A stretch of DNA of 64,000 nucleotides from an uncultured delta proteobacterium (GTDB lineage: Bacteria > Desulfobacterota > Syntrophia > Syntrophales > UBA2185): the NCBI GenBank assembly GCA_963695875.1, contig CAVOID010000015.1:14291-78290 (forward strand), read 5' to 3'. The position numbers and the translations under genes were made by a program. The notes below the pieces were generated by a model. It was not told where the DNA came from. It made no database searches and saw only the letters and a program-made list of their open reading frames with translations. Position 1 is the stretch's first letter. Each line of letters opens with the position of its first letter. Of the stretch, positions 6,836 to 60,040 are shown in pieces.

Positions 6836-7141
6836 CAGTAATTTTATCTTACTATTATTTTACTAAATATTTAATAATAATATAACTTCCATTAGACCTT
6901 GGAACGTGTATAACAATATAGTCAGAATATGTGCTTTGCAATATTTTAGATGATAAAAGTGTGACTTTCTCAACCCTAACGCGGCGGTGTTAGCGGCCCA
7001 AGTTCAGTGTTTTTTAATCCATTCAAGAAGGCAATCCATAAAGAGGAAATACATAATAATAGATATCTAATATTATAAATGGGCTTGAAAATATTCAGGA
7101 GGGACATAAGATGAAAACGATGTGCAAAGTAGCGATAATAG
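6731..7141 (+). repeat. Inverted-repeat copy A (3' end of the LuxR gene + intergenic region + first ~30 nt of the RCC1 gene)
   Basis: The reverse complement of 27321-27742 aligns along the whole length. A 53-nt block is perfectly identical (6971-7023 = rc 27445-27497). Confidence 0.85.
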
Positions 7142-9489
7142 CGATTTGCCTGTTAATCGCGCAGACGGTTCTCATGGCTGGTCCGGAGCAGGCAGGGGCC
7201 CAGATACCCAACTGCACAGTCACATCCGCTAATGGTACATATACCGCGTCTCCAATCGGGTGTAAAGTTTATGCGGCTTCTGCGTCTGGTGTACCGGCTG
7301 GGCTTATAACGACAGCGACAACTGCGCAGCGAATCTATCCTGGATCCGGTAACGATTTTACATTATTCTTTTCAGATAACGCAAAAGGTAACGGAATAAC
7401 TTATAATTTAAACCCTGCCCCAACTCTTTATCAAACTTCTAAAGCTATAACAAATTATGCGTATACCACCTTGAACAGTAGTCTTAACACAACTAAGATG
7501 TATGATAACTGGGGGACAACAATTATTCCAACCGGCAAATACCTGCAAGCAAACCCCATCAATAATGAGTCCACGGGAATAATTCAGGTTGCGGGAAAAA
7601 TAGTTAACCCTGTGAAAAATGGAGGGACGATGAAGGTCGGTGGTGAACCCGACGGAGTGATAATCGATGGCTCCCTGACGAACCAGCTGGTTTTCCCCAG
7701 GCCCTTCGCGATGGGTTATTTTCACTCTCTCGGGCTGAAATCGGACGGCACGGTCTGGGCATGGGGTGACAATTCTTTCGGTCAGCTCGGGAACGGGACT
7801 TACACGGGCAGCAGTTCTCCCGTACAGGTGAAGGACCCGAGGAACGAGACGGGCGCGACGCCCCTGACGGGAATCGTATCTGTTTCGGCGGGTGAATTTC
7901 ACTCTCTCGCGCTGAAATCGGACGGGACGGTCTGGGCTTGGGGTGACAATACTTACGGTCAGCTCGGGCACCCAATGGACTCCACCCTCAGCAATGTTCC
8001 CGTGCAGGTATTGGACCCGACGGACCCGTCGGGCATGACGCCCCTGACCGGAATCGCGTCTGTTTCAGCGGGTTTTTGGCACTCTCTCGCGCTGAAATCG
8101 GACGGGACGGTCTGGGCTTGGGGTTATGATGGTGACGGTCGAGCTCGGGACCGGCTATAACGGGGACAGTCTCTTTCTTCCCGTGCAGGTGGTGGACCCG
8201 ACGGACCTGACGACTCACCTGACGGGAATTGTGTCTGTTTCAGCGGGTTTTTCGCACTCTCTCGCGCTGAAATCGGACGGGACCGTCCGGGCATGGGGGG
8301 CGAACTCTTGGGGTGCGCTCGGGAACGGAACTAACACGGACAGTTATGTTCCCACGCTGGGTCGTTAGGGGCCTGACGGAAATCGTGTCCGTAGAGGGGG
8401 GTGCAACCCACTCTCTCGCGGTGAAATCGGACGGGACGGTCTGGGCATGGGGTGACAATTTAAACGGTCAGCTCGGGAACGGAACTACGACGGACAGCTG
8501 GGTTCCCGTGCAGGTGTCGGGGCTGACGGAAATCGTGTCCGTCTCGGCGGCGAGTTGGCACTCTCTCGCGGTGAAATCGGACGGGACGGTCTGGGCACTG
8601 GGGTGACAATTATTACGGTACGCTCGGGAACGGGACTAGCGGACCTCTTACGGACAGCAATGTTCCCGTGCAGGTGTCGAGCCTGACGGGAATCGTGTCC
8701 GTTTCATCGGGTGCAAACGACTCTCTCGCGCTGAAATCGGACGGGACGGCCTGGGCTTGGGGTTATAATGGTGACGGTGAGCTCGGGAACGGGACAACCT
8801 CTGACAGTTATGTTCCCACGCCGGTGTCGGACCCTCCAGAATGGGGTATGTCACCGGGTACCTTGTCGTTCGATATTGGGGGCACTACTCCATGCCCGTG
8901 TGGCCAAAGCTGCGGTCCGGGGTTTTACAGTCAGCTTTGTGTAACTGGCACAGTAACGCTTGATGGTGCAACAGTGATCTTGAACTTCATTGACGGCTTC
9001 ACACCGCAACAGGCTGGTAATACTATCTTCCATATAATTTCTGCAGCCGGCCAAGTGATCGGCACGCCCCTTCAAGTGCTGCAAGTAGTAAATGGGGAAA
9101 TAACGCCTTACACCGGTAGTGTTGTCTTCGATCAAAATGCTACGGGCACGACGTTACTCAATGCCATTGTGACTTTGCAAAACCAGATAAGAGATTTAGA
9201 TGTCAGTGTGTTCAAAAAACGCGACATTACGAAAACTCTCCTACTGACGGAGTTAGACGTGGTTATGGCCACAATTAACGAGGGCATCAAACATCCCAAA
9301 TACAGCAAATTTTTCTTTGGGGTTGCCCTTGCTGAGCTCCAACTTGTAATCTTGCCCGAAACCAACGGTTGTGAAAAACCGCGGGCAACGCGTCCTGATG
9401 GCGATGACTTGATAGTTAATTGTACGGCTCAGGGCCTGGTTTATCCTCTCGTTTTGAACGCGATAGATGTCCTGAGACATTTATTATGA
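7111..9489 (+). CDS. Secreted RCC1-repeat (7-blade beta-propeller) protein with an unknown C-terminal domain; three 1-nt insertions (8140, about 8359-8361, 8598)
   Basis: Signal peptide [23 protein letters not shown]. Seven [25 protein letters not shown] units. ORFs 7111-8160, 8126-8368, 8313-8606 and 8668-9489 join when the single extra bases are removed; sister repeats show the uninterrupted sequence. Confidence 0.75.
7723..8770 (+). repeat. Seven tandem DNA units of ~150-180 nt encoding the RCC1 blades
   Basis: The core CACTCTCTCGCGCTGAAATCGGACGGGACGGTCTGGGC recurs starting at about 7723, 7900, 8080, 8255, 8409, 8559 and 8719. Confidence 0.85.
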
Positions 9490-9616
9490 TTCGGTAAATC
9501 TGCATTGGTTTCTTTGGAGGCTTTGTATTTGTCTCCGAAGTTTGACTTTTGGGTTTTGTGGGATCTATTGACTCTCAAAAAATATTTTTAACATTTATTG
9601 CAAGGAGGGAATTACC

Positions 9617-10339
9617 ATGGGAAACTTTACCAGATTGATAACGTTGATTTTCGTCTTGTCAGTTTTAATGGTTACCCCAACATTGGGTGCATCAGCGCCG
9701 GTGATATACGATGTAAAATCAGATTACAATGCCATGACCCTCACTGTGATCGGGCAGAACCTTGGAAGCACATCTGGCACCGTAACACTCGGAGGTACCC
9801 CGCTTACCGTCAATAGTTGGTCTCCAAGTGCAATCGTTGCGCAGATTCCCCAAGGAACTAGCCCTGGAAGTTATTCATTGGTTGTTACAGGACCAAGAAG
9901 GGGTGATCTTAGCGCAACGGCCGAAGTAACTATAGGGGAATTGAACATCCAAGGCACATATTCCTTCACGGGTCAGGCCTCCGGTCTCAGTCTCGCACGG
10001 CGATTTCAACTCAGCTCTCTGATTCCGATAGTCAACGGGTACGTATGTTTCTGTAACGTGCAGCATGACAGGGCGTTGCGACCTTCAGTAGTGACAGGCA
10101 CGGGAACTTTGTCGGGTCAGGGGTATCCACCACCATTGGCCCGTTCTATGTATTTGGGAATTCTTGGTGATTCGGGTTCGACAAATTATACTGAACAATT
10201 CACATACACCGTCGGAACTGACGGCATCATTACTATACCGGGTAGCCTCGCGCACGGGGACATATCTCACGGGGCCCCGTACCGACCATACGTGGGTGGA
10301 ATACCCGATCATTCTCACAGGTATGATCTCGATGGATAG
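9617..10339 (+). CDS. Secreted IPT/TIG-domain protein (3' end uncertain, may continue in another frame to 10448)
   Basis: SD AAGGAGGG and signal peptide ...VTPTLGASA. IPT/TIG-like TLTVIGQNLGSTSGTVTLGGTPLTVNSWSPSAIVAQIPQGTSPGSYSLVV. ORF 10164-10448 looks coding and may be the frameshifted tail. Confidence 0.5.
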   Translation: MGNFTRLITLIFVLSVLMVTPTLGASAPVIYDVKSDYNAMTLTVIGQNLGSTSGTVTLGGTPLTVNSWSPSAIVAQIPQGTSPGSYSLVVTGPRRGDLSATAEVTIGELNIQGTYSFTGQASGLSLARRFQLSSLIPIVNGYVCFCNVQHDRALRPSVVTGTGTLSGQGYPPPLARSMYLGILGDSGSTNYTEQFTYTVGTDGIITIPGSLAHGDISHGAPYRPYVGGIPDHSHRYDLDG

Positions 10340-10716
10340 AAATAGCATAACGCTCAGCAGCCCCGATCCGCCAGTGATCACGACGTTCACAGACATACTT
10401 CTAATGGGACCGACCATCGCATCTGTCATCGATCGCGCGTCATGTTAGGACGCCAGTAGAACAAGGAGCAATGGGAACCTGATCGGGATTGCGATCACCG
10501 ATAAAGTGTTCCTGAACCGTCAACCGTGCTTTTTTTGGTTTCGGTTTAATGTCGGGTTGAGTAGGGATCAGAAGAAAGTATAAGAAGTAATGTTGGCAGA
10601 CGTCAAAAGAAAGTGTAGAAAGTTAGAATAATTCATTGTGTCGGAATGGCCCCCATGAGCTTTTTTGTTTTCGTGGGGGAAATTTTCACTATCAATATTT
10701 GAGAGGTCGGAAAAAA

Positions 10717-13700
10717 ATGGCGACACAACGACATCACTCGTGCCTTGTATCTTTGATCACGGTTTTCCTTGTTTGCGTCCTTTTTCTGGGTGTGGCCTCC
10801 GTTGCGGTTGCGGCGGGGGATGGAGTAAGACTGGACGGCAGCCTCGGTCAGACCCCGGGTATTGTGGGCGGGGGCCAAGTAAACGGCACCCCAACTACTT
10901 ACCTGATTACCGACACCCTGGGAAAGAAAGCCGGCGGCAATCTATTCTACAGCTTCGGCAGCTTCAACATTTACACGGGAGAGAGTGCCACCTTTCACAG
11001 CCCAAATAGCACCAGTTATAACAATATCATCAGTCGCGTGACCGGGGGGAGTCCGTCCAGCATCGATGGACTCCTCAGGTCGACGATTGAAGGAGCAAAT
11101 CTCTACCTGATGAACCCGAGCGGCGTCATGTTCGGCCCCAACGCGAGCCTCGATGTGAAGGGGAGCTTCCACGTGAGCACGGCGGACTATCTCAAGTTCA
11201 GTGACGGGGGTGTTTTTTACGCCGACCCCGCGAAGAGCAGCGTGCTCTCCGTGGCGGAACCGCAGGCATTCGGGTTCCTCAGCGCAAATCCGGCCGCCAT
11301 TTCCCTGGACCGATCGGTCCTCACGGTACCGGACGGGCAGACACTATCGATTATTGGGGGAGATATTAACGTTCAAAATGATCCCACATCTCCTACATAT
11401 TATGGAGCGACATATTATACTCTCTCCGCACCGGGGGGGAGGATAAACCTCGTCAGCGTCGCCTCACCGGGTGAAGTCAACCTGAGCACACTGGATATTG
11501 GTTCTTTTACAAAACTGGGGAATATCACATTCTCAAACGGAGCCAATGTGAACGTTTCCAGCAGCGATGGAACGACACCAGCAGGATCCGTCGTCATAAG
11601 GGGTGGCCAAATCCTCTTTCAAGGTTCCGCTATCGATGCGACGGGAAACCCGGGTGGCTCGATCGATATTAAGGGAGAGACCCTTCAACTGGATAATTCT
11701 TCTTTCAATATATCCACCTATGGCGATGCGGATCACCCCGGAACGGCATGTCAGATCGAGCTTTCCGGTGATTTTATCATGAAGAATGATTCGTGGATTG
11801 ACTCTGAGAGCTTTGGTACGGGGCGCGGGGGAGACATACGCATCAATGCAGGCAATGTCATGCTGGGGGATGACTCTCCCGGCAGCGGTCCATTAGCCGC
11901 CTTTGGCAATTACGGTTTTATCCAGTCGGGCTACTTTGCTTCGTCAGGTCCGGTGGTATCATATCCATTATTTCAGCCGGCGACGTGGTTGTGAAGAATG
12001 GTTTCTATATCGCCGCAATGACAGCCGGTGAAGGGAATGCCGGCAATATTACCATCCAAGCCGGCAACAATTTCGTCATGAAAAACGAGTCTTACATCGA
12101 TTCCTCGACTTGGGGCACAGGGCGCGGAGGATACATACAAATAACTGCGAGGAATATAACGCTCGGCGATGATGCCCCCGGAATACCACTCTTGGATACT
12201 TTCGATCCCTTTAACCCTTACGGCAGCATCCGTTCGTGGTCTAATCCATCATCAGGCCCAAGCGGTGATATATCTATTACAGCAGGTAATCTCATAGTTA
12301 AGAACGGTTTTTATATCGGCACCGCGGCGCTGAATCAGGCGAATGCGGGCAATGTCACGGTTCGCGCTGATACTATAAAGTTTCTGGATCAGGGAAACAT
12401 ATTCTCGAATGCTTTCGCGTCAGGGACAGGGGGTAATGTCGATGTGTCGGCCCGTGATATCCTGATTTCCGCCACGAATGAAGCAGCAGTGACAAATAGT
12501 CAATATATTACCGGCATAGGTGCGCAAACCGGTGGCACCTCTAACGGTGGTAAAATAACAGTAAACACGGACAGCCTGCAGCTCCTCGACGGAGGACAGA
12601 TAAGCACGGTCCTTCTCGGTTCGGGCCGTGGAGCGGACATTGAGATTACGGCGAAGAATATCCTGATTTCGGGATTTGTTCTTGATCCTGCCTTATCCCC
12701 CGTGCCGTATGGATTATCAGGGATAGATGCGCGTGTGGTTGGCGCGGCGACAACCGGTGGTATCGGAGGGAACATTGCCGTCACCGCAGGCAATCTGAAC
12801 ATAGCGAATGGAGGGGTTATCCGTACGAACCTCTTTGAAGATGCCCCTGGCACAGCCGGCAATATCACCGTCAATGCGGGAGCAATAAATATCAGCAGCG
12901 GCGGCCAGATCTATGCGGATTCCTTCCGGGGAACAGGCGATTCGGGAGACCTTAATATTACCGCAAACAGCATGAGCATCTCCGGCTTCGGGGGTTCGCA
13001 GGCTCCCTATCCCGTTCCCGACTTTACGGGACTTTCGACCAAAACGAATGCAGGGAAAGGCGGCACGATTAATTTAACCCTCACTGGCGATCTCTCGATA
13101 ACAAACAAAGGATCGATCAGCGCCGATACGCAGGGGACAGGTTCAGGCGGTGCCATCAATATACGCGCGCAAAATGTGATGCTTACCGATCAGAGCATTA
13201 TCAGCAGTTCAAGCTCCGGGACAGGGCCAGGCGGAGTGGTTAATATATCGACTGTCGGTGATCTCTCTGCAACAAACTACGGAACGATCAGTGCCGCTGC
13301 AAGCGGGGACGGTGTGGGCGGTGACATAAATATCAAGGCGCAAAACTTACGCCTCACCGATCAGGGCACTATCAGTAGTTCCAGCTCCGGAATCGGCAAC
13401 GCCGGAAATGTAAATATCACCGCCGCTGATTCTATACTGCTGAGAAACAGCTCCATTACCACAGAAGCCATGAAAGCGGACGGGGGTAACATCCAGATAA
13501 GCGCCTCATTCGAGGTGAGCCTCTTTGACAGTAAGATCACAGCGAGTGTGGGCGGAGGACCTCAGACAACCGGAGGAAACATCACCATTGACCCACAGTT
13601 TGTCATTTTGAAAAACAGCCAGATTATCGCCAATGCCTTTGAAGGCAGAGGAGGCAACATACTGATCAATACAGGTGTATTCCTTGCAGATCCGGATAGT

Positions 13701-13937
13701 GTAGTGGATGCTTCGTCCGCCCTGGGCATTAATGGCACGGTTGATATTCGAGCGCCCATCACCAATGTCAGCGGGCTTTTGAATCCATTATCCGCTGATT
13801 TTGTCAGCGCTACGGCACTGCTTCGAGAGCGATGCATTGCCAGGATCCAGGGGGGCAAATACAGTAGTTTCGTAGTAGGCAGTCGTGATGGGCTACCCAT
13901 TGAACCGGGCAATCTCATGCCTGGATTTCTGCACTAA
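10717..13937 (+). CDS. Two-partner-secretion exoprotein (TpsA, filamentous-haemagglutinin N-terminal domain + beta-helix repeats); 1-nt deletion near 11953
   Basis: Signal peptide, then the TPS domain GNLFYSFGSFNI...NIISRVTGGSPSSIDGLL...ANLYLMNPSGVMFGPNASLDVKGSFHVST. Reiterated units read GxGGxIxIxAxNxxL/NAGNITI. ORFs 10636-11994 and 11985-13937 join as SSGP(G)GIISIISAGDVVVKNGFYI. ATG 10717 has SD GAGAGG. Confidence 0.85.
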
Positions 13938-14008
13938 TTGCTCCCGGCTATTTAAATCAATAAAACCAATAGCTGGGGAATCAGTACCGATAATCAAGAT
14001 AAAAGGTT

Positions 14009-14063
14009 TGAATCCGGCAGCGAGCGTATTCCCCGTAGCTTGCTGCGGGGTAAGCGAGCGAAT
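14009..14063. repeat. Dispersed palindromic (REP-like) element, copy 1
   Basis: Hairpin CCCCGTAGCTTGCTGCGGGG at 14031-14050. About 55 nt is homologous to rc of 56570-56625. Confidence 0.6.
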
Positions 14064-14134
14064 GGGGAACATCATTATAGTCTCAAGAAGTCAGCATCCG
14101 ACATTAGAATTATACCGGCTAGGGGATAACTACT

Positions 14135-15949
14135 ATGAAGGCAGAGAGTTTGCTTCGCCATTGGATAAAGAAAGTCCCACTTCCTGAGATGATCAGAGAT
14201 CTTTGGCATCACAGCTCACGGGGTACTTACTTCGCATTGCGCACCTTCCTGGTCTTTCTGGTATTGATCTCTCTTATCACTTCTGCTTATGGCCAGGTGC
14301 TGCCCCGTCTCGATCCCACAGGCCGATCAGGAGATAGGCGTCCCGAGCCTCTTGAGGAAGAACTCCTAACCCCTCCTCCGACGGTGACGCTTCCTGCTCC
14401 ACCTGGTCCCGCGAAGGAACAGGCGGTACCGCTTCTCAAGAGTGTATTTGTACGTAAGATAGTTGTAACGGGAAGCACAGTCTTCAAGGCAGACGAGATC
14501 GCCAGGGTCACCGCTCCTTATGAAAACCGGAATGTGACAATGGAAGATCTGGAGTCTCTTCGCCGGGCTTTGACACTCCTATATGTGAACAAGGGTTATA
14601 TTAATTCCGGCGCCATCATTCCGGATCAGAAGGTGGTTGATGGTGTGATTACCTTTCAGATTATTGAAGGTAAGCTCACGCACATAGACGTGGAGGGGAA
14701 CAAGTGGTTTGGTGAGGCTTTTCTCAGGGATAGGATAGCTCTGGGCGCAGGAGCTCCCGTCAATATCAGTCCTTTGCAGAACCGTTTACAGATACTGCAG
14801 CAGGATCAGAGGATACAGCGTATTCATGCGGAGCTGAGACCCGGCGCCACACCCGGAGAGAGTGAGTTGAAGGTGAAGGTAGAGGAAAAACCACCATTTT
14901 ATGCATGGCTCGCATTTAACAACTACCAGCCACCGTCGGTTGGTGCTGAAAGGGGACTCCTCACACTTGCTCACCAGAACCTTACCGGCCATGGAGATAT
15001 CCTGAGTTTAACATACGGACGTTCGGAAGGTCTCAGTCCCCAGCTTGACACCTGGTATGCGATCCCCATCAATGTTTACGATACAACACTGCTTTTAAGA
15101 TACAGGATAAACGACTTTGACGTTGTTGACAAGGAGTTTGGACCACTGGACATTTCGAGTAAATCGGAAATCTATGAACTTACCCTGCGTCAGCCTATCT
15201 ACCGGACACTCAACCAGGAATTCGCCCTCGCCCTTACGTTAGAGCATGAGTACAACAAGACCTATCTGTCCGGAGAACCTTTTTCATTTGCTCCGGGAGT
15301 GCAAGATGGGCGCGAGGTAGTGATTCCAGTGCGGTTTTCACAGGAATGGACATACCGTACGCAGCGGCAGGTCATCGCGGCACGATCCCGTTTCTCCTAT
15401 GGTCTGCACACTGAGGATACGACAATAAATAATAATAAAGACGTCCCGGACGGAAGATTTTTTGCGTGGCTGGGACAGTTTCAATGGGCTCGAATCCTGG
15501 GATTCTGGGATACGCAGTTGCTCTTCCGGGCAGATATACAGCGTTCCAATGATTCTCTTCTACCCCTCGAGCAGATTACCATCGGCGGGAGATACAGCGT
15601 AAGGGGCTATAGGGAGAACTTGCTGGTCCTTGATCAAGCCTTTATTGCCTCCCTGGAAGCCCGGATCCCCATTATACAGAATAAGCGCTGGGCGGACTAT
15701 ATTCAATTGTGCCCTTTTTATGATTACGGCAGGGGGACAAACAAGGATTTTCCAACCCCCGATCCGGTAGATATTTCCAGCGTCGGCCTGGGCCTCAGGT
15801 GGGCTGCACCCTTGATAAAATCACCTTTTGAGCTGAGGTCCGAACTTGAAGTATACTGGGGGTATGCCCTGAGAAAGATCGATCTGCCGTATGACGATCC
15901 CCAGGATGCCGGGATTCACTTTCAAATCGCCATCACAGGTTTCTTCTAA
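14135..15949 (+). CDS. TpsB outer-membrane transporter (ShlB/FhaC/HecB family, POTRA + beta-barrel)
   Basis: POTRA sequence VFVRKIVVTGSTVFKADEIARVTAPYENRNVTMEDLESLRRALTLLYVNKGYINSGAIIPDQKVVDGVITFQIIEGKL. C-terminal barrel ends in aromatic ...FQIAITGFF. Confidence 0.9.
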   Translation: MKAESLLRHWIKKVPLPEMIRDLWHHSSRGTYFALRTFLVFLVLISLITSAYGQVLPRLDPTGRSGDRRPEPLEEELLTPPPTVTLPAPPGPAKEQAVPLLKSVFVRKIVVTGSTVFKADEIARVTAPYENRNVTMEDLESLRRALTLLYVNKGYINSGAIIPDQKVVDGVITFQIIEGKLTHIDVEGNKWFGEAFLRDRIALGAGAPVNISPLQNRLQILQQDQRIQRIHAELRPGATPGESELKVKVEEKPPFYAWLAFNNYQPPSVGAERGLLTLAHQNLTGHGDILSLTYGRSEGLSPQLDTWYAIPINVYDTTLLLRYRINDFDVVDKEFGPLDISSKSEIYELTLRQPIYRTLNQEFALALTLEHEYNKTYLSGEPFSFAPGVQDGREVVIPVRFSQEWTYRTQRQVIAARSRFSYGLHTEDTTINNNKDVPDGRFFAWLGQFQWARILGFWDTQLLFRADIQRSNDSLLPLEQITIGGRYSVRGYRENLLVLDQAFIASLEARIPIIQNKRWADYIQLCPFYDYGRGTNKDFPTPDPVDISSVGLGLRWAAPLIKSPFELRSELEVYWGYALRKIDLPYDDPQDAGIHFQIAITGFF

Positions 15950-15983
15950 GCAGGAGAATGAAATCTGAATTAGGGGAATTGTT

Positions 15984-18396
15984 ATGAAAATGAATAAAAC
16001 CTTTAAAAGATGCAGGGTCTCTTTCCGAAGGTTCATTCCTTTATCAGCTTTCTTATGTCTTTTCATGTTGGTTCCCGCTTTTGGAAGTCTCTTTATTGGT
16101 ACTGCCTTTTCATCGGAGGAATCGCCGGTTGTAAAGAATCCGGGTCTGAGTCCGAAGACATCAGGTTCGTCTGAAGGCCAATCGCCCGGAAAATATATAG
16201 ACCAGGGAGTCCTTTCGTTTGATCGGGGCGCCTTTGATGATGCCATTGTAAACTTCGAAGCTGCCATACGTTTGTGTGAGCAGGATACTAACAAGGTCAA
16301 GCAGTGCGAGGCACTAATAAGGCTGTCTCAGGCCAGTCATTTTACCGGCCAATACAAGAAAGCACTGCAAAGCTTGGAAAAGGCCATGACCATTGCAAGA
16401 GAATTGAATGACGGACATCAAATTGCCGCTATCTTCGGTTCCATGGGAAATGTCTATATCGGAATGGGTAATGGTAATTTGGCTTTAGAAAATTTGAATC
16501 AGGGACTCCTTATCGCAAAAGAATCAGGATATGTCAGATGTGACAGCTGTCATTCTGAACAATTTTGGGAACCTGTACGTTTCGCAGAACAAATATGATG
16601 ACGCACTCAATGCATATCGGGAAAGCGCTCAGCAAGCGAAGAAAGCGAAGAACATTTCGCTTGCAGTCCAGGCTGATATCAATGGGGCGACGGCCGCATT
16701 GAGAGGCGGTAAATATGCCGATGCCCGGAAGCAACTCGATAAGGCGGTGGGTCAACTTCGCAGTCTCGAAGATTCCTATGCCAAGGCTTACAGCCTCATC
16801 AACGCAGGCATTGTATACTCTGATCTTCGTGTGTATTATCCTGACCAAAAGCAGGTTCTTTTAAAGCAAGCTTACACTGCAATCAATGAAGCCCTTACTG
16901 TGGCCCAAAAGATAAACGACCAGAGAACAGTATCATATGCATACGGCTATCTCGGAAAACTGTATGAAGATGAACGTCAATATGAGGAGGCCCTCGAATT
17001 AACCAGACGGGCAATATTTGCGGCCCAACAGAAAAATGCAAACGAGGCTCTGTATAGATGGCACTGGCAGAGCGGACGGATTCTCGCCCATCTGGGTAAC
17101 ATAGATGAAGCAATTGTATCTTACAGAAATGCGATACATGACCTGCAGGCTATCCGGGAGGAATTTGCTTCCTGCTATGCCAGTCCTGAATCGTCCTACC
17201 AAAAAACCGCAAGTGTCGTCAGTTTTGAAATGGTGAAATTGCTCCTCGAGCGTGCCTCCGTGCTCCAGAAAGGGGAGGCTGTCGAGCCTTATCTGGTCGA
17301 AGCCCGTGAGGCTTTAGAAATCTTGAAGGTGTTTGAGTTGCGGGAGTACTTCAAAGACGATTGCGTGGATGCCGCCCGATTTGTTGAGAAAAAACTGGAT
17401 GTAGTTTCTGAGAAGGCCGTGGTAATTTATCCGATTCTGTTAGATGATCATGTGGAACTCCTGGTAAGCTTTTCAGGACGCCTCAAAAGATTTACACTCC
17501 CTGTGGGAGCAGTTGCCTTAACCAACGAGATCAGGGAATTCCGCAGAAAGCTCGAAAAACGAACCACAGGAGAGTACCTGCCCCATGCCCAGAAGCTTTA
17601 TGACTGGATCATCCGACCTCTCGAAAAAGACCTTAATTCTGTGAAAATTGATGCCGTTGTGTTCGTGCCGGATGGACCTCTCCGGACAATTCCCATGGCT
17701 GCGTTACACGATGGAAATAAATTTCTAATTAATCGTTACCCGGTTGCTATTACCCCGGGATTAAATCTTACGGATCCGCGCCCCTTCAAACGGGAGAACG
17801 CAAAAGTACTGGCCCTGGGGTTGACCGAACCCAGGCAGGGGTTTCCCGGTCTGCCCTATGTATCCGGTGAGCTCAAGGCTATTAAACAACTTTATGGAGG
17901 GCAGTTCCTGCTGAATGGGGAGTTCCGTGTGTCTAATGTGGAAAAAGAGCTGAAGAAGGAACCCTTTAGTATTGTCCATATAGCCTCGCACGGCCATTTT
18001 GGGGGGGACGTGGGTGATACATTCCTCCTGGCATTTGATGAAAAGTTCACTATAGATCGCTTCGGAGAGTATGTGGGTCTTTTCAAATTCCGTGATGAGC
18101 CCCTGGATTTACTCACATTGAGCGCATGTGAAACCGCCGCAGGGGATGACCGGGCAGCACTGGGCCTGGCTGGGGTTGCCATCCGGGCAGGCGCCAGGAG
18201 CGCTCTTGCAACACTTTGGCATGTCAATGATCCCGCATCTTATGAGTTGATCGTAGAATTTTACAAACAGCTACAGCATCCGTCTGTCTCGAGAGCCGCG
18301 GCACTCCAGGCAGCACAACTCAAACTGCTCGGAGATCTGCGCTACGATCATCCCGGTTACTGGGCGCCTTTCATTTTGATCAACAACTGGTTGTGA
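15984..18396 (+). CDS. Exported TPR-repeat CHAT-domain (caspase-like) protease; 1-nt indel near 16530
   Basis: N-terminal hydrophobic signal/anchor and TPR-like repeats. The CHAT catalytic dyad context is intact: VHIASHGHFGGD and LLTLSACETAAGD. ORFs 15984-16598 and 16531-18396 join at ...LLIAKESG|MSDVTAVILNNFGNLY. Confidence 0.85.
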
Positions 18397-18411
18397 GGTT
18401 GCCTGCAAGGT

Positions 18412-20352
18412 ATGGCACAGTTTCTCAAATTCATCCAGAAACCCATCATCGTCAAATTGATGGGAGGTCTCCTCGTTTTTCTGCTTATCGTGGGTTTGCG
18501 AAACAGCGGACATCTCGAATTTCTGGAACTCGCAGCGTATGACTGGTTCATACGCATGGAGCCGAAACTCTCCAGCGGAGATCCCAGGATAACGCTCATA
18601 GAGATTTCCGAAAAAGACATTCATGCCCATGGCCGCTGGCCCCTGACGGATGAGGCCCTCGCCAAAGCCATGAATATTCTCGTCAAGGATAATCCCCGTG
18701 CCGTTGGCCTGGACATTTATCGCGATATTCTCGTGCCTCCAGGAAGCGAAGAATTAAACGCCATCTTCGTCGAAAATCCTCAAATCATCGGGGTGATGAC
18801 ATTCGGCGAGAAGGGTGTGCGGCCGCCGGCGATCATCAGCAATACGGAGCAAGTGGGGTTTAACGACATACTTGTCGATCCCGGAGGTATTGTGAGGAGA
18901 GCGCTTATCTTTCTGGATGACGGTGAGAATGTGTATAATTCTTTTGCCCTCCGGCTCGCTTCTCTTTATCTTCATGCGGAAGGAATTGCTCTACAGGCTG
19001 ATCCGGAAAATCCGCAATACATCCGTCTGAAGGATACTACGATAAAACCTTTTGAGGCAAATGACGGGGGCTATATTAAGGCGGATGCTAGAGGTTACCA
19101 GTTTCTTCTGGACTTCGAGAACGCGGGCTTGCCTTTTCGGTCCTATTCTTTCTCCAAGCTGTTATCCGGTGAAGTTCCAGCGGAAGCGATCGCCGATAAA
19201 ATAATCCTAATCGGCGTCAGCGCCCAGAGCGTCAAAGACTTTTTTTATACACCGCTGAGCAAAGGTTTCGAAGAGGTCCAGCAGGTTCCCGGTGTTGTTC
19301 TGCACGGACACATTATAAGCCAACTGCTGAGGTTCGCCCTCGACGGAACTTCACCGCTAAAGACATTGCCGGAAACGCAGAAGCTCATCTGGATCTTGCT
19401 CTGGAGCCTCACAGGAGGTTTGATCGGACTCCGCATACGCTCCGTATGGCGCTTCTCTATGTTGATCTTAGGCGGCTTGGTGCTTCTTTGTCTTGCGTCA
19501 TATTTTGCCTTTCTTGCCCGCTGGTGGATTCCCCTGGTGCCTCCAGCTCTATCATTCTTCATATCCGCTGTTGTCGTCACGGCCTACATGTCAAGCCATG
19601 AAAAGAAAGAGCGGGCCCTCCTGATGCAGCTCTTTTCGAGACATGTGTCAAAAGAAATTGCGGAGATCATCTGGCAGCAGAAGGATCAGTTTCTGAACGA
19701 CGGCCGTCCCCGATCCCAGAAAATGACGGCTACCGTTTTTTTCTCCGATTTAAAGGGTTTTACAACGATGTCCGAAAAGATGGACCCGCAGGAGCTTATC
19801 GACTGGCTGAACGCCTATATGGAACCTATGACGCGCTTGATTATGGAGCACGGCGGGGTCATCGATGACTATGCCGGGGATGGCATCAAGGCGAACTTCG
19901 GTGTGCCGCTGCCGCGGAAAAATGAAGATGAGGTGCGCTCGGACGCCATGAATGCAATTAACTGCGCTCTTGCCATGGAGAAAGAAATGTGCCGCCTCAA
20001 TGCCTTCTGGAGCCAAAAGGGGCTTCCCGCCATGGGGACGCGGGTCGGCATCTTTACCGGGACTGTTGTGGCGGGCCTTCTGGGAAGCTCAAAGCGATTA
20101 AAGTACACCACCGTCGGCGATACCGTTAACATTGCCGCGCGGCTGGAAAGTTATGACAAAGAAGTGTGCAAAGATGCCCTCTGCCGCATCCTCATCGGTG
20201 AGCCGACTTTGCGCCATGTCAACGGCCAGTTTAAGACAGAAAGAATAGGAGAGGTCAGCCTGAAAGGAAAGGATGAAAGAATAATCGTTCACCGGGTGCT
20301 GGGTGATGAATCTCCCGGCTCTCAAGCAATATCAAAGGAGGGAATATCATGA
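18412..20352 (+). CDS. CHASE2 sensor domain / class III adenylate-guanylate cyclase
   Basis: CHASE2 region reads LELAAYDWFIRMEP...ITLIEISEKDIHAHGRWPLTDEALAKAMNILVKDNPRAVGLDIYRD. TM helices follow, then the cyclase core ATVFFSDLKGFTTMSE...GDGIKANFG...YTTVGDTVNIAARLES. Confidence 0.9.
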   Translation: MAQFLKFIQKPIIVKLMGGLLVFLLIVGLRNSGHLEFLELAAYDWFIRMEPKLSSGDPRITLIEISEKDIHAHGRWPLTDEALAKAMNILVKDNPRAVGLDIYRDILVPPGSEELNAIFVENPQIIGVMTFGEKGVRPPAIISNTEQVGFNDILVDPGGIVRRALIFLDDGENVYNSFALRLASLYLHAEGIALQADPENPQYIRLKDTTIKPFEANDGGYIKADARGYQFLLDFENAGLPFRSYSFSKLLSGEVPAEAIADKIILIGVSAQSVKDFFYTPLSKGFEEVQQVPGVVLHGHIISQLLRFALDGTSPLKTLPETQKLIWILLWSLTGGLIGLRIRSVWRFSMLILGGLVLLCLASYFAFLARWWIPLVPPALSFFISAVVVTAYMSSHEKKERALLMQLFSRHVSKEIAEIIWQQKDQFLNDGRPRSQKMTATVFFSDLKGFTTMSEKMDPQELIDWLNAYMEPMTRLIMEHGGVIDDYAGDGIKANFGVPLPRKNEDEVRSDAMNAINCALAMEKEMCRLNAFWSQKGLPAMGTRVGIFTGTVVAGLLGSSKRLKYTTVGDTVNIAARLESYDKEVCKDALCRILIGEPTLRHVNGQFKTERIGEVSLKGKDERIIVHRVLGDESPGSQAISKEGIS

Positions 20353-21102
20353 ATAACCTGAAACTAATAGTAATCGTCGGGCTTATTGCGGCGCTGCCGT
20401 TTCTCACCGGCGCAGCAGATGAGGGTAAGACAAAGCGGTCTGATGAAAATACCCAAACAGATCAAAAAGCGAAGCAGGTTACGACCGTGGGCAAGCCCGT
20501 ATACAAACCGCCTCTCCGCGGATCGCCAGCCGGGCGTGTGGGGGGTGGAACGCGCGGGATGACAGAAAGGGAGTCCTTTTCTCTACAGGTCCTGGCGCCG
20601 GACCACATTGGTTTGACGATCCAGGATCAACCCTGTCTCTACTGGTACGTATCGAAACCAATCCCTTATCCTGTTGAACTGACCGTTATTGAAAGAAATG
20701 CAGTGAAACCACTTCTTGAAAAGATCATCAAGGGTCCTGATAAGGGTGGCATCCAATTCATTCGTTTAGCCGATTATGCTGTGCATCTGCGTCGGAATGT
20801 CCCATACAAATGGTTTGTGACCCTTGTGACCGATTCCAATCACCGTTCCAAAGATATTCTGGCAGGTGGCATAATAACACTGGTTGAACCGCCGCCATCG
20901 CTATTCGGCCAAACTCAAGGCGGCAGACAGCGGCAAAGCGCCCTATATTTACGCCGAGGAGGGGCTATGGTATGATGCGCTGGGAGCGATATCAGGGATG
21001 ATCGATGCTTCACCGAATAATGTGGATCTCCGCAAACAGCGCGCCTCCCTTTTAGAACAGGTAGGTTTAAGTGAAGTTGCAGAATTTGAGAATCGGCAAT
21101 AA
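20349..21102 (+). CDS. DUF928-family exported protein; 1-nt indel near 20900
   Basis: Signal peptide, then YKPPLRGSPAGRVGGGTRG. The C-terminal motif EEGLWYDALGAISGMI lies in ORF 20884-21102, which continues ORF 20349-20975. The start overlaps the cyclase stop (ATGA). Confidence 0.65.
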
Positions 21103-21281
21103 GTGTTTAAAAAACAAATAGAAACAAAACTGACATAAATTATAGAATAGGCTGATGCTTTGTATATGATGGGCGTGAAGTCTGTGAATGCCAACCCGTC
21201 GACCAGACAACGAAAGTGACCTTTGATATAGATGGACACGTGAAGGAAGTAAGGGAAATCCATAAGGAACAGTAGACTGCC

Positions 21282-22208
21282 ATGAACGAGAACGAGAGCG
21301 GGAAAAAGGGACTTACGGGGAGCAGAGTTTTCGGGCAATTGCCCAAAGAGAAGTGGGATGAGCTCACTAGGGCTATGGAGAACCAGGTGGTAGCACGGCG
21401 TACGATCATCTTCAGGCAGGGGGATCCAGGGGACAAGTTTTACATTATCCATTCAGGGAAAGTGAGGGTGTTCAGGAAGGACGCTGATGGATTGGAGACG
21501 GACTTGTCTTTGCTGGGAGCGGGTGAAAGCTTTGGTGAGATGGCCCTGCTGACAGGTGAGACGAGATCAGCGAACGTGGAGGCGGTAGAAGAGACCCGCC
21601 TAAAGGTGCTTTCCAAAGAGCAATTTGAGCTTATTCTGAAGGACTTTCCCCATATTTCCCTGGCCTTTGTGAAGCAGATGTCGGGATGGCTTCTGAGGGA
21701 TGAGAAGACCATTGAGAAGGAAGCGCAACAACTTTACCGGGCACATCACATATCCTGGTTTGATTTTCTGCTGGTGATCGGGGTGAGTGTAATTCTAGCC
21801 CTCGTGTTCAATAAGTCTAACCCGAACGGGATACCCCTGTTTCCGAAGTTTCCTGACAGGAAAGCGATTTCCGAGATCAGCGCTGCTCAGGCGATGGAAG
21901 AGGTGAAGAAGGGCGAAGCGCTCATCGTGGATGCTGGTCCTGAAGCCTTCTATGAAAAGAAACATATCCAGGGGGCGATCAGCATACCGCTCTCTCTTTT
22001 TGATATAGTGTATACGATGGCCTTTGGAGGGAATGAGAAGGGGAAAAAGGTGATTGTGTACGGAGGAACATTCAGCAAGCTCTATGATTGGGAGCTGGCG
22101 GACAAGCTCCTTCTTCGGGGGCATAAGGATGTGAAGGTGTTGGAGGGGGGGATGGCGACCTGGGAAAAAAAGGGCTATCCGGTGGAGGAGGAGAAAGGGA
22201 AGGAATGA
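21282..22208 (+). CDS. Cyclic-nucleotide-binding domain / TM helix / rhodanese-like domain protein (rhodanese lacks the catalytic Cys)
   Basis: cNMP-binding region reads [23 protein letters not shown]...[25 protein letters not shown] helix [20 protein letters not shown]. Rhodanese fold reads [24 protein letters not shown]...[10 protein letters not shown]...[15 protein letters not shown]. Confidence 0.8.
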
Positions 22209-22708
22209 TCCATACATTTCTAAAACAGATTGTGACGAGTCCGTATCTGGCGCTGATTCTGAGGGTGTTCGTGGGCTATATCTTTCTGTACGCTAGCGTG
22301 AGCAAGATACCGCACCCTGCGCAGTTTGCGGAAGCGACGGCAGCCTATCAACTGATCCCGTACTGGTTTCTGAATGTGGGGGCTATACTATTGCCGTGGA
22401 TCGAGTTTGTGAGCGGGCTGTTTCTGATCATCGGGCTGAGGACGAGGGCGGCGGCAACCCTCATCGGTCTGATGTTGATCATGTTCACCGTGATGGTCCT
22501 GACCAACATGTACTGGGGAGCGTCTATTACGTGTGGGTGTTATGATACGGTGGGGGAGCCTATTGGGTGGAAGAAGGTCAGTGAGGACATATTACTGCTC
22601 CTCTTCACGATACAGATTTACTTCTGTGACAGGTTGTTCATCTTCCGCAGGGGGGGCTTAATGCCCAGCATAAAGGGCATGGTCGCTACTCTGACAGGAT
22701 TGCAATAA
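22205..22708 (+). CDS. MauE/DoxX-family membrane protein
   Basis: Four predicted TM helices and the motif [12 protein letters not shown]. The start overlaps the upstream stop by 4 nt. Confidence 0.7.
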
Positions 22709-42746: not shown

Positions 42747-43046
42747 ATGAAAATCAAAATGCCCATAAAGTTTCACGGCAATTATCGGGTGATCATTCGC
42801 CAGGGCGATTGGGAAGCCCGGGAACGATGCCAAAAACTCATCATCAGAGAGATAACACCAGCTGAGAAAGAGCAATACTACAAAGAGATGGATGAAAGAG
42901 ATATCCCTACGCACCAGGTCAATTTTTTTGACTTTGGTTGCCGCCGCATCATAGAGGGCAAACTCACGGTAAACGAAGAAAACAGAGTGGCTTTCGCAGT
43001 TGAAGAAAAGGAGTACGAATTTTCACCCTTCGTCCCCGGAAGATGA
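42747..43046 (+). CDS. Hypothetical small protein
   Basis: SD GGAGG before ATG 42747. 99 aa with no recognised motif. Confidence 0.4.
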   Translation: MKIKMPIKFHGNYRVIIRQGDWEARERCQKLIIREITPAEKEQYYKEMDERDIPTHQVNFFDFGCRRIIEGKLTVNEENRVAFAVEEKEYEFSPFVPGR

Positions 43047-43091
43047 TCCGGCAACATCATAATATATAAAAGAGCCTGGTTATTCTTGCCC

Positions 43092-44241
43092 TTATCGCAT
43101 GCCTAAGAGCTTTCTCGAGATAACTACTCTCTGAATCTCGTTCGTGCCTTCATAAATCTGGCAGATCTTTGCATCCCGCATGTGCCTTTCGGCCGGATAC
43201 TCTTTGGTGTAACCGTAACCGCCGAATATCTGCACACCTTCAACGGATGCTCTCATCGCGACATCGGACGCATAACACTTTGCCATCGCCGATTCCTTCT
43301 CGTAATCAAGGTGATTATCCTCCATCCACGCGGCGCGAAGGAGCATCAGCTCCGCTGCATCAAGCTCCATTGCCATATCGGCAAACTTGAACTGGATTGC
43401 CTGGAAGGTCGAAATCGGCTTACCGAACTGCACTCTTTCTTTTGCATAAGCGAGGGCATCTTCCAGAGCGGCCCGACCGATACCGCAGGCCTGGGAACCT
43501 ATTCCGATCCTTCCCGCATCGAGCCCCATCATCATCTGCTTGAAACCCTGGCCCGGCTTACCGAGGAGATTTGCCGCCGGTATCTCGGCATCCTCAAAGA
43601 CCAGTTCCGCCGTTCCGGACGCCAGGATTCCCATCTTCTCCTCGATCTTTCCTACTTTAAAACCAGGGGTGTTCTTCATGTCCACGATGAGATTGATGAC
43701 CCCCTTGTATCCTAATGCAGGATCTGTCGTGACAGCCAAAACGCAGTAATGGGCTACATTGCCGTTCGTTATGAAGATTTTGGTCCCGTTGACAATATAT
43801 TTGTCCCCCTTCAATACGGCCCGGCACTTGAGCGCAGCGGCATCCGAACCGGCGCTGGGTTCCGTTAAGCCATAGCAGCCTTCAACCTTTCCGCTTGCCA
43901 CCGGCGTCAGGAACTTCTTCTTCTGCTCTTCCGTACCAAACGTCAAGACCGGATATCCGTACAGTGAATTGTTGACGGAGACAATGACGCCACAGCTTCG
44001 CGCAGGCCTTGGAAATCTCAATCATGCACAGAACATATGTCACTACATTCATGCCCGCCCCGCCGTATTCCTGCGGTACGGCGACGCCCATGATTCCCAT
44101 CTCGCCCAGTTTGCGGCAGATCTCTTCCGGATGCCTGTGGGTTTTGTCCAGATCTGCGGCGATCGGTTTAATCTCCTGCTCCGCAAACTTTCTTACCATA
44201 TCTCGCACATCTCGCTGATCTTCTGTCAATCCAAAATTCAT
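43092..44241 (-). CDS. Short-chain (butyryl-CoA-type) acyl-CoA dehydrogenase; 1-nt insertion near 43997
   Basis: ORFs 43882-44241 and 43092-44021 join as ...MIEISKACA|SCGVIVSVNNSLYGYPV. The C-terminus reads QIYEGTNEIQRVVISRKLL. Confidence 0.85.
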
Positions 44242-44297
44242 GGCTCATAACCCCCTTATTAATGATACGTTATTAATGCATTGTAGCAAACTGCAAA

Positions 44298-45080
44298 TCA
44301 ACTTCCTGTGAAGACAGGCTTTCTTTTTTCAAGAAAGGCTTTCATTCCTTCTTTCTGATCATCCGTACTGAAGCACTGGGCGCAACACTCCATCTCAAGC
44401 CTGATGGCGTTATCGAGAGAAAGATCATACCCAAAATTGATTGCATGCTCGGCCATCTTGATGGCGAAACCGGGCATACGTGCCAATTTTCCGGCAAACT
44501 TTTTTGTTTCAGGGAGGAGCTGATCGAGCGGGAATATCCTGTTTACGAGGCCGATTTCATAAGCCCTCTTTGCATCGATCTGCTCGCCACTCATGATGAG
44601 TTCCTTAGCCCTACCCATTCCAACTAAACGTGAAAGCCTCTGAGTTCCTCCCCATCCCGGTATTAAGCCAATCAATATTTCGGGTTGGCCGAATCGGGCT
44701 GTCTCTGATGCGAATCTCATATCGCAGGCCATCGATATTTCTGTGCCACCACCAAGGGCAAAACCGTTCACGGCGGCGATCGAAGGCTTGGGTAAAGTCT
44801 CAATCAAGCGGAGCGTTTCATTACCCAGTTCCATGAAAGCAAGGGCGTCCTTGGGCCTCAAGTTCTGCATTTCCGATATGTCTGCACCTGCTACAAAGGC
44901 CTTCTCTCCCGCCCCGGTGAGGATGAGGACCTTGACGCTGTCATCATTTTTGCAGCAGGTAACAGCATCAAATAATTCCTTCATGGTTTCCGTATTCATG
45001 GCATTCAAGGCCTTGGGCCTGTTAAAAGTTATCGTAGCGATGCCCTCCTCCGCTGCAAACAAGAGGTTTTTATATTCCAT
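44298..45080 (-). CDS. Enoyl-CoA hydratase (crotonase)
   Basis: Reads ITFNRPKALNAMN, GAGEKAFVAGADISEM and GFALGGGTEISMACD. SD AAGGAGGT before ATG 45080. Confidence 0.85.
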   Translation of the reverse strand: MEYKNLLFAAEEGIATITFNRPKALNAMNTETMKELFDAVTCCKNDDSVKVLILTGAGEKAFVAGADISEMQNLRPKDALAFMELGNETLRLIETLPKPSIAAVNGFALGGGTEISMACDMRFASETARFGQPEILIGLIPGWGGTQRLSRLVGMGRAKELIMSGEQIDAKRAYEIGLVNRIFPLDQLLPETKKFAGKLARMPGFAIKMAEHAINFGYDLSLDNAIRLEMECCAQCFSTDDQKEGMKAFLEKRKPVFTGS

Positions 45081-45161
45081 CTCACCTACCTCCTTTTTCA
45101 CTTTCTTTTAATGCCCAGAAAAGTGCTCCAAGCACCGAAGAACATTTCTCGAAATCAAGTA

Positions 45162-46019: not shown

Positions 46020-46082
46020 CGCTTCCTTTCTCCCTTCATTTAATTATGAACATTTCGTGTACCTGAAAATTAACTTCGCAAT

Positions 46083-47341: not shown

Positions 47342-47649
47342 TGTCGAAAAATCCGGCTTTCTCTGACCGAATTTTGCGATTGGCGCATTTGCATACATCT
47401 CCGCCCTGGTTTTTTCCAGTTTCTGCGGTACCTTATCCATTCCTTCCCCCTTGATTTTACCTTATTAGGTCTTTATATAAGTAGCAGAAGAGATCCTCAG
47501 ATGCGAATCAAAGCTTTATTCGATAGCTGTGCTATGCAACTGTGTATTTTTATAGGCTTTTTGCTTCCATCACATGCTCGAAAAAATATTTTGAGCCGCG
47601 ACGAATCCCTTCTGCAAGACTTCCCTAATATCAGATGCCGGTAATTAGA

Positions 47650-48809: not shown

Positions 48810-48890
48810 AGCTCTTCCCCCTCTCTTCTATTAATCTATAATATATTGTATCCCTTGCTTCACCTTCAGGCAAAGCAAGGGATGCATTTT

Positions 48891-49796: not shown

Positions 49797-49810
49797 TTCC
49801 CCCCTTTCCT

Positions 49811-50867: not shown

Positions 50868-50961
50868 AACTTCCTCCTTTCAAAAAAACATTACCAATTC
50901 GCACACCCTTCTCGTTACCAGAATCACAATCTCTGTACATGAGCAACATAGTCTTCAATAT

Positions 50962-60027: not shown

Positions 60028-60040
60028 ATATTATTTAAAA

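Follow-up and report, generated by a model that had tools for sequence, protein, structure and literature searches.

Why should a two-partner secretion (TPS) pair share an operon with an exported protease, a receptor-type nucleotide cyclase and a periplasmic protein of the DUF928 family? TPS systems are usually viewed as plain two-gene exporters, and a five-gene version that drives a cyclic-nucleotide pathway would give them a part in signalling as well. The question is raised by a 64,000-nucleotide (nt) stretch of DNA from an uncultured delta proteobacterium (assembly GCA_963695875.1, contig CAVOID010000015.1), here called the window, in which positions 10717 to 21102 encode the exoprotein TpsA, the transporter TpsB, a TPR-CHAT protein, a CHASE2-cyclase and a DUF928 protein. 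Profile searches, a census of related loci and structure predictions lead us to read this operon as an envelope-spanning five-gene set that couples a TPS surface fibre to cyclic-nucleotide signalling, with a probability of about one half. This value joins a strong general part to a weaker specific one: that the five genes form a functionally linked envelope module running from TPS to cyclic nucleoside monophosphate (cNMP) signalling is very likely, whereas the particular order of cleavage and sensing proposed below is held tentatively, at somewhat less than even odds.

As judged from sequence, what sets the locus apart would be a periplasmic protease and a receptor-cyclase arm dedicated to a TPS system; the closest characterised relative of any of its accessory parts is MtxA with its CHASE2-cyclase. 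Our search of the open literature returned no description of the combined module, in agreement with the earlier note on this DNA; we found only partial notes in two papers (PMC5587647 and PMC4439547).

A compact operon of envelope proteins

The operon contains five genes and one intergenic element.

10717-13937, + strand: tpsA, two-partner-secretion exoprotein, about 1074 residues after frame correction
14013-14068, + strand: palindromic interspersed repeat of about 55 nt, in the tpsA-tpsB gap
14135-15949, + strand: tpsB, ShlB/FhaC-type Omp85 transporter with POTRA domain and signal peptide; open reading frame (ORF) intact
15984-18396, + strand: TPR-CHAT gene, predicted exported caspase-like cysteine protease, about 803 residues after correction
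18412-20352, + strand: CHASE2-cyclase gene, CHASE2 receptor fused to a class III nucleotide cyclase; ORF intact
20349-21102, + strand: DUF928 gene, predicted periplasmic protein, 250 residues after correction

The ORF listing and translations place the five co-oriented genes exactly where the earlier note had put them. Gaps of 197 nt separate tpsA from tpsB, 34 nt tpsB from the CHAT gene and 15 nt the CHAT gene from the cyclase gene; the cyclase stop and the DUF928 start overlap as ATGA at 20349-20352, and DUF928 is probably translationally coupled with the cyclase gene. Promoter and terminator scans gave counts at or below the shuffle expectation.

Every domain call for the five products scores well above the curated Pfam cut-offs. 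TpsA matches the TPS domain with 137 bits (cut-off 33.5) and TIGR01901 with 76 bits, and TpsB matches POTRA_2, ShlB and Omp85 with 72, 103 and 48 bits. The CHAT protein scores 189 bits to CHAT, with multiple TPR matches in both of its ORF pieces, and the cyclase 206 bits to CHASE2 and 79 bits to Guanylate_cyc. DUF928 has one score per ORF piece (68.6 and 39.6 bits), and the pieces cover positions 2-138 and 136-181 of the 184-position profile (PF06051). Pfam thus supports all five domain assignments first made by eye, DUF928 and CHASE2 included; NCBIfam gave a model for neither the cyclase nor DUF928. A Kyte-Doolittle scan finds N-terminal hydrophobic signals on TpsA, TpsB (residues 33-51), CHAT and DUF928 and predicts transmembrane (TM) segments in the cyclase, as expected of products directed to the envelope, and the motifs NPSGV, HIASHGHF, LSACETA and YKPPLRGSPAGRVGGGTRG, which had been quoted from these proteins, are all present in the translations.

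The five families are linked across phyla

We anchored a census of related loci on DUF928. A DUF928 profile (A1, 32 homologues) led to 80 loci in the GTDB genome set, all from different species; the DUF928 motif described below was one of the two locus-search patterns, so the census covers the DUF928 subfamily of the window and not all DUF928 proteins. Partners were identified with iterated profiles of the window domains against the six-frame ORFs of the loci. A well-flanked subset comprises 30 loci with at least 9 kb on both sides of DUF928.

Partner: all loci; well-flanked loci
CHASE2: 70/80; 28/30
CHAT: 56/80; 27/30
TpsB: 57/80; 26/30
TPS: 50/80; 27/30
All four partners: 43/80; 23/30

This neighbourhood analysis, which the earlier note had proposed, finds the five families strongly and specifically linked. 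As a control, the 160 kb downstream of DUF928 in 16 canonical loci held no ORF of a partner family. The locus titles name Nitrospirota, Desulfobacterota (Geobacterales/Desulfuromonadales, Desulfobacterales and Syntrophobacterales), Methylomirabilota (Rokubacteria), Verrucomicrobiota, and Beta- and Gammaproteobacteria, about five phyla in all; a few bins labelled Bacteroidales or Actinomycetota may be mis-binned. The carriers include environmentally important anaerobes and iron and sulfur cyclers, among them Geobacterales, Desulfobacterales, Nitrospirota, Gallionellaceae, Sulfuricellaceae and Methylomirabilota. The nearest species representative of the module is Ca. Sulfobium mesophilum, with 40-70% protein identity.

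Gene order differs in several lineages. The median gap between the CHASE2-cyclase gene and DUF928 is 0 nt, and DUF928 usually lies directly 3′ of the cyclase gene. In Sulfuricellaceae, Rhodoferax, Rokubacteria and Verrucomicrobiia the tpsB-tpsA pair either diverges or follows downstream; Gallionella-type loci start with DUF928, and in some Burkholderiales loci CHAT sits immediately upstream of DUF928. The identical five-gene order of the window recurs among unrelated flanks in a Nitrospirae and a Desulfuromonadaceae metagenome-assembled genome (called genes, Pfam), and reciprocal look-ups that started from the TpsA C-terminal tail met the full module in two of three places. For the recurrence in cyanobacteria that the earlier note suggested, the one pointer is a literature record of CHASE2 next to DUF928 in Nostoc punctiforme (PMC5587647).

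The DUF928 model matches the fold of MtxA

DUF928 begins with a signal peptide and continues with a disordered linker that carries the motif, an Ig-like beta-sandwich and a TPR-like helical domain. In an AlphaFold2 model computed from 46 sequences (mean predicted local distance difference test score, pLDDT, 81.9), residues 16-44 are disordered and are followed by a lower-confidence motif segment, the beta-sandwich (78-178) and five helices (183-249). No part of the protein is more conserved across the 80 loci than the motif, Y-K-P-P-L-R-G-x-P-x-x-R-[VI]-G-G-[GA]-[TS]-R-[GS], which holds two conserved Arg-Gly dipeptides; it is near-invariant in the form YKPPLRGxPxGRxGGGTRG. A shorter pattern, G-R-x-G, is common to the DUF928 linker and the TpsA tail.

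The wider DUF928 family numbers 6137 representatives at 50% identity (profile A2, E<=1e-3). Two of these relatives (P0313 and P0411) carry an N-terminal PG_binding_1 fusion, and such peptidoglycan-binding fusions fit a periplasmic location. DUF928 is tandem or two-domain in Methylomirabilota/Rokubacteria and some Nitrospiraceae (loci L027, L037, L045, L077 and L083; relatives P0269, P0270, P0316 and P0369). A 906-residue CHASE2-cyclase-DUF928 fusion (P0408) was set aside as Rosetta-stone evidence because a single-nucleotide indel at the usual ATGA overlap is enough to produce such a fusion, which may therefore be an artefact.

A Foldseek search of the PDB with the DUF928 model returned the C-terminal domain of MtxA (4z29; E 2e-5, probability 1.0). 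The match extends over 180 aligned columns and both domains, with a TM-score of 0.54 normalised to the target, and the two chains of 4z29 are the only PDB matches with E<1e-3. MtxA (MGR_0208) of Magnetospirillum gryphiswaldense is periplasmic, with a signal peptide, Ig-like and TPR-like domains and a trypsin-labile N-terminal part of 141 residues; a conserved CHASE2-adenylate cyclase gene comes after mtxA, and the paper describes the protein as confined to magnetotactic bacteria and lacking sequence homology (PMC4439547). DUF928 resembles it in location, signal peptide, two-domain fold and the adjoining CHASE2-cyclase gene, and the flexible N-terminal linker of DUF928 parallels the protease-sensitive N-terminal part of MtxA. 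The two differ in gene order, in that mtxA precedes the cyclase gene whereas the DUF928 gene comes after it.

MtxA probably belongs, as a divergent member, to a general envelope-signalling family, and its label as magnetotactic-bacteria-specific and without homologues should be revisited in the light of the fold link. The statement in the earlier note that no function had been assigned to such gene combinations agrees with the open literature on the module as a whole, but it overlooked this solved fold relative.

A receptor-cyclase with probable lineage-specific receivers

The cyclase is predicted to comprise an N-terminal TM segment, a periplasmic CHASE2 domain, a TM bundle and a cytoplasmic cyclase domain, and its closest solved structures are Pseudomonas aeruginosa CyaB (3r5g) and Synechocystis Cya2 (2w01). 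The two metal-binding Asp residues, the transition-state Asn and the Arg are invariant in 70 of 70 cyclases. The specificity pair of the window cyclase is Asp-Thr, with an Asp at the position that holds Lys in CyaB and Glu in Cya2, and thus matches neither the canonical adenylyl pair (Lys-Asp/Thr) nor the canonical guanylyl pair (Glu-Cys/Gly). Across the module (cyclase domain 19600-20352 in the window; loci L006-L085), the first specificity position is D in 30, K in 21, Q in 11, S in 4, N in 3 and R in 1, and the second is mostly Thr. The cyclase looks catalytically complete and active, with a product that is not callable from its sequence; its specificity may vary from lineage to lineage or depart from the canonical classes. 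The earlier proposal that the signal is cAMP or cGMP accordingly goes further than the residues permit, as the choice between the two is not decidable from an Asp that is neither the adenylyl Lys nor the guanylyl Glu.

Directly downstream of DUF928 lie two genes of the possible output.

21282-22208, + strand: cNMP-binding/rhodanese gene, with cNMP-binding domain, one TM segment and rhodanese domain
22205-22708, + strand: MauE/DoxX-family gene, membrane protein; a local output outside the conserved core

The first product scores 90 bits to cNMP_binding and 46 bits to Rhodanese in Pfam, with a single TM segment at residues 157-175, and so is the cNMP-binding membrane protein that had been reported at 21282; its stop overlaps the start of the second gene at 22205-22208, whose product scores 92 bits to MauE and 41 bits to DoxX. 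A single TM segment between the cNMP-binding and rhodanese domains implies that the rhodanese domain should face the periplasm, and the protein would then link cNMP inside-out to periplasmic sulfur or thiol chemistry.

The suggestion that a plausible receiver lies next door gains weight from the census, in which 18 of the 80 loci have cNMP-binding genes within 10 kb, often directly beside DUF928. Their fused outputs include a Na/sulfate symporter, a sigma-54 AAA+ activator, a Ser/Thr kinase, a patatin/NTE-like phospholipase, a CRP-type helix-turn-helix domain and a glutaminase-STAS protein, and one locus adds a class II or metallo-beta-lactamase (MBL)-type phosphodiesterase. The cNMP-TM-rhodanese gene is kept in 97%-identical contigs and absent from locus L001 (DUF928 75% identical), and other loci have different cNMP-binding proteins at the same place. 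It is a probable lineage-specific receiver outside the core.

A TPS pair with a conserved C-terminal tail

By its defining features the locus is a bona fide TPS pair, as far as sequence can tell. It shares with FhaB/FhaC, ShlA/ShlB and HMW1 a TpsA with TPS domain and beta-helix, an adjacent ShlB-type Omp85 protein with POTRA domain, and signal peptides, and TpsB is predicted to export the beta-helical TpsA. It differs from these systems by the added exported TPR-CHAT protein, CHASE2-cyclase and DUF928, and by a TpsA that ends in a short disordered tail and not in a prodomain, toxin or adhesin tip. TpsA is the least conserved partner, with 40-50% identity to its Sulfobium and Geoanaerobacter homologues (L006, L007) against 64-70% for the other four; TpsB is 70% identical to that of Ca. 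Sulfobium. Such divergence of TpsA is as expected of a surface-exposed protein under diversifying pressure.

The architecture of TpsA comprises the signal peptide, the TPS domain, a beta-helix passenger and the disordered, conserved C-terminal tail. The tail (the last 60-70 residues or so), which contains LLRERCIARIQGGKYSSFVVGSRDGLPIEPG in the window, is conserved in 42 module TpsAs with the consensus …DASSxLGxxGxVxIxAP…LP…LLRxxCxAR..G..SSFvvxGR(D/G)GxPxEP, followed by the protein end. An AlphaFold2 model shows a beta-helix up to …VDIRAP and then about 60 low-confidence residues that include one helix, and the tail is accordingly predicted to be unstructured. The single Cys of the tail, in LLRxxCxAR, is invariant.

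A contact-dependent inhibition (CDI) or haemolysin-type TPS system was considered and rejected. TpsA has no VENN motif, Pfam finds nothing in residues 427-1074 of the passenger, and the C-terminus is the disordered tail common to the 42 homologues; the gene directly after tpsA is tpsB and not an immunity gene. On this point we concur with the earlier note.

The tpsA-tpsB gap holds a hairpin core at 14029-14069. A second copy of this element of about 55 nt lies between genes near 56570-56625 on the - strand; its 22-nt repeat core, GCTTGCTGCGGGGTAAGCGAGC, recurs there with 2 mismatches, where shuffles expect 0 matches. It looks like a small interspersed repeat of the repetitive extragenic palindromic (REP) or miniature inverted-repeat transposable element (MITE) kind, and the description as a REP-like hairpin is reasonable on account of the second intergenic copy, with the limit that the gap as a whole folds with a z-score of only -1.2, which is not significant. 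Rfam has no family for the repeat and finds only a tRNA elsewhere in the window.

A predicted exported TPR-CHAT protease

All 47 module CHAT homologues keep the SHG His and the SAC Cys, and the dyad that looked intact in the window protein is thus conserved throughout. A signal peptide or lipobox-like N-terminus is present in 30 of 44 homologues, most of the others being uninformative high-GC ORF extensions. The TPR-CHAT protein is therefore a predicted periplasmic export and, in some lineages, an apparent lipoprotein. A sequence search of the PDB matched the CHAT half to TPR proteins only, with no CHAT match. A non-catalytic residue, Cys461 (in …DDC…), is at least 95% conserved.

TPR and CHAT domains with a His/Cys dyad are also combined in Craspase (Csx29 of type III-E CRISPR) and in CHAT/separase-type proteases. 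The Craspase protease is a highly specific, partner-activated endopeptidase with its substrate encoded in the same locus. The module protease differs in being exported, and the genes for Cas7-11, Csx30 and Csx31 are absent here. To our knowledge, the characterised TPR-CHAT proteases (Craspase, separase and HetF) act in the cytoplasm or nucleus; the module would place a TPR-CHAT protease in the periplasm, with candidate substrates encoded adjacently. The conserved Arg-Gly dipeptides of DUF928 and of the TpsA tail hint at, and no more than suggest, an Arg specificity of the protease.

A proposed outside-in signalling pathway

In the pathway that we propose, TPR-CHAT would bind and cut a disordered conserved motif, in the DUF928 linker, the TpsA tail or both, and cleavage would report the secretion or surface state of TpsA. 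DUF928 would be the periplasmic partner or co-sensor of CHASE2, and altered DUF928 would set the activity of the cyclase. The nucleotide signal would be read by a nearby, lineage-variable cNMP-binding protein, here the cNMP-TM-rhodanese protein with its MauE/DoxX partner. The earlier note had likewise suggested that CHAT cuts TpsA or DUF928 at basic residues and that CHASE2 senses the product. The Arg-Gly motifs of DUF928 and of the TpsA tail, both disordered and conserved, would fit such cleavage and sensing.

A more detailed version, possible but doubtful, is that the state of the TpsA fibre, in terms of secretion, tension or contact, is reported by a CHAT cut at an Arg-Gly motif and that the product, processed DUF928 or released TpsA tail, serves as ligand or co-receptor of CHASE2 and so switches the cyclase, whose own product may not be cAMP in view of the non-canonical Asp. 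If true, this would give the first defined input of a CHASE2 domain and reassign MtxA to a general envelope-signalling family. We know of no defined ligand for the widespread CHASE2 sensor domains, and DUF928 as a dedicated periplasmic partner would be a concrete handle on what they sense. Small periplasmic proteins encoded beside their receptor are familiar from LuxP-LuxQ, TorT-TorS and ChvE-VirA, and the role suggested for DUF928 beside CHASE2 would be alike; DUF928 differs in lacking a periplasmic-binding-protein fold, and the output is a nucleotide cyclase and not a histidine kinase.

Several points weigh against this reading of the module. We infer, and do not observe, the protein contacts and the cleavage in the pathway, and the DUF928 motif is intact in loci without a nearby CHAT gene, which a role in CHASE2 binding fits at least equally well. 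Its conservation is also partly built in by selection, since the motif was one of the two search patterns. Three loci (L016, L073 and L081) have only the CHASE2-cyclase and DUF928 within 10 kb, and three others (L031, L038 and L067) have the Tps genes, CHAT and DUF928 without CHASE2 nearby, so the five genes are not strictly obligatory; both kinds of partial locus place DUF928 at the hub of the module. The non-canonical and variable specificity residue makes the cyclase product uncertain. The link to MtxA rests on fold and gene context, as a profile of the 46 DUF928 sequences matched no MtxA chain in the PDB at E<=10. Deletion of mtxA in Magnetospirillum gave no phenotype under standard conditions (PMC4439547), a result that membership of MtxA in a general envelope-signalling family would explain as far as magnetotaxis is concerned. 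Finally, three genes of the operon carry frameshifts, which, if real, make this copy non-functional.

Release of the fibre as the main rival

The main rival, not mutually exclusive with the signalling pathway and in our view unlikely, is a Lap/CdrA-like release system, in which CHAT trims the TpsA tail to release or mature the fibre, DUF928 is an inhibitor, adaptor or pseudo-substrate, and the cyclase is a separate sensor that regulates expression via cNMP. There is precedent in the TPS adhesin CdrA, which is released by the periplasmic cysteine protease LapG under the control of LapD. A conserved, disordered tail in which a GR(D/G)G(L/I/V)P motif shortly precedes the end would suit such a cut, as would a CHAT protein predicted to be exported with its His/Cys dyad intact, and the three loci that combine TpsAB, CHAT and DUF928 without a nearby CHASE2 gene are as this account would have it. 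It sits less well with the place of the CHASE2-cyclase as the tightest partner of DUF928 (70 of 80 loci, median gap 0) and with the CHASE2-DUF928 pairs that have neither CHAT nor Tps genes, which the MtxA-cyclase pair resembles. Pfam finds neither a LapD-like cyclic di-GMP (c-di-GMP) receptor nor a LapG-family protease at the locus.

The likeness to Lap/CdrAB is indeed one of logic only: a surface protein, an outer-membrane exporter, a periplasmic cysteine protease and a cyclic-nucleotide inner-membrane protein. LapG is transglutaminase-like, whereas the module protease is a CHAT protein of clan CD; LapD binds cytoplasmic c-di-GMP and works inside-out, whereas the module receptor would make cNMP from a periplasmic input, outside-in; and the Lap system has no equivalent of DUF928.

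Frameshifts in three of the five genes

The gene layout, gaps and domains given in the earlier note are real, but it overlooked three frameshifts, and the genes are not intact as it wrote them. A single-nucleotide frameshift interrupts each of three operon genes: tpsA, the CHAT gene and DUF928. In tpsA the break lies near 11952, between ORFs 10636-11994 and 11985-13937, and in the CHAT gene at about 16520-16531, within the TPR region, between ORFs 15984-16598 and 16531-18396. The starting frame of DUF928 stops at 20975, and its C-terminal part (…YAEEGLWYDAL…RQ and stop) is in another frame that ends at 21102; comparison with three near-identical contigs identifies the lesion as one extra A at 20903.

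The operon could thus be a decaying pseudogene cluster, with real frameshifts and no function in this organism. Besides the share of interrupted genes, the position of the three indels, all outside long homopolymers, speaks for decay, a reading that we nevertheless consider improbable. Apart from one indel each, the broken ORFs are without stops or deletions, and one-indel corrections yield proteins of 1074, about 803 and 250 residues. Corrected TpsA and CHAT align as single high-scoring segment pairs with intact homologues from Ca. Sulfobium mesophilum and Geoanaerobacter, and corrected DUF928 aligns end to end with its homologues (at least 120 among the matches listed). In three independent metagenome contigs with 95-98% nt identity to window positions 16639-22589, DUF928 is intact.

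The breaks are not specific to the operon. Elsewhere in the window there are at least 10 breaks across six further genes, core genes among them; the RCC1-repeat gene runs through four frames, CheA is in three pieces (Hpt; dimerisation domain; HATPase and CheW), the gene for a thiolase is split and those for two acyl-CoA dehydrogenases are cut short.

7111-9489; 43092-44021; 46083-47160; 47996-48604; 61591-63419: split or truncated genes elsewhere (RCC1-repeat gene, two acyl-CoA dehydrogenases, thiolase and CheA)

This amounts to at least 13 breaks in 64 kb, about 1 per 5 kb, a density similar to that of the operon (3 in 10.4 kb). Two other loci whose contig naming suggests long-read assembly (L011 and L089) show the same fragmentation of module genes. 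Because breaks occur across the window and DUF928 is intact in the 95-98%-identical contigs, the operon frameshifts are most probably assembly indels and not gene decay. The window-wide split genes, taken by themselves, point to an indel-rich assembly or to genome-wide decay.

Conflict system or chance

A third account, very improbable, makes the operon an anti-phage or conflict system with a caspase-like CHAT effector, a Pycsar-like cyclase and cNMP-activated effectors. The cyclase domain does match the PADLOC PycC models (best 97 bits), the cNMP-binding neighbour matches Pycsar effector models via its cNMP domain, one locus has an Apyc1/MBL-phosphodiesterase-like neighbour, and TPR-CHAT is the architecture of the Craspase protease. 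The PADLOC matches are generic domain matches only: TpsA, TpsB and DUF928 match no PADLOC model, and CHAT has only a weak, generic TPR match (19 bits, E 1.5e-4). CHAT and DUF928 are exported according to prediction, the cyclase is a receptor whose CHASE2 sensor lies outside the cytoplasm, the surroundings contain neither CRISPR nor gRAMP genes, and the cNMP-binding partners are housekeeping-type regulators and transporters. We therefore rejected a catalogued defence system, since the gene set matches none in PADLOC.

Chance juxtaposition of unrelated envelope genes, for which speaks nothing more than that each family also occurs alone elsewhere, is effectively refuted by a co-occurrence in 23 of 30 well-flanked loci from about five phyla that survives rearrangement, and by control flanks free of partner genes.

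Neighbouring genes

Upstream of tpsA, positions 7111-10339 hold RCC1-repeat and TIG/IPT-domain genes; their products are probably secreted or located at the surface, and conservation beside the module in other genomes is lacking. Two further clusters of the window are unrelated to the module. Positions 43000-50900 encode a beta-oxidation-type set (acyl-CoA dehydrogenases, enoyl-CoA hydratase, 3-hydroxyacyl-CoA dehydrogenase, thiolase and CoA-transferase), and positions 60000-63500 a chemotaxis cluster with CheA, a CheW domain, a CheY-like receiver and CheX.

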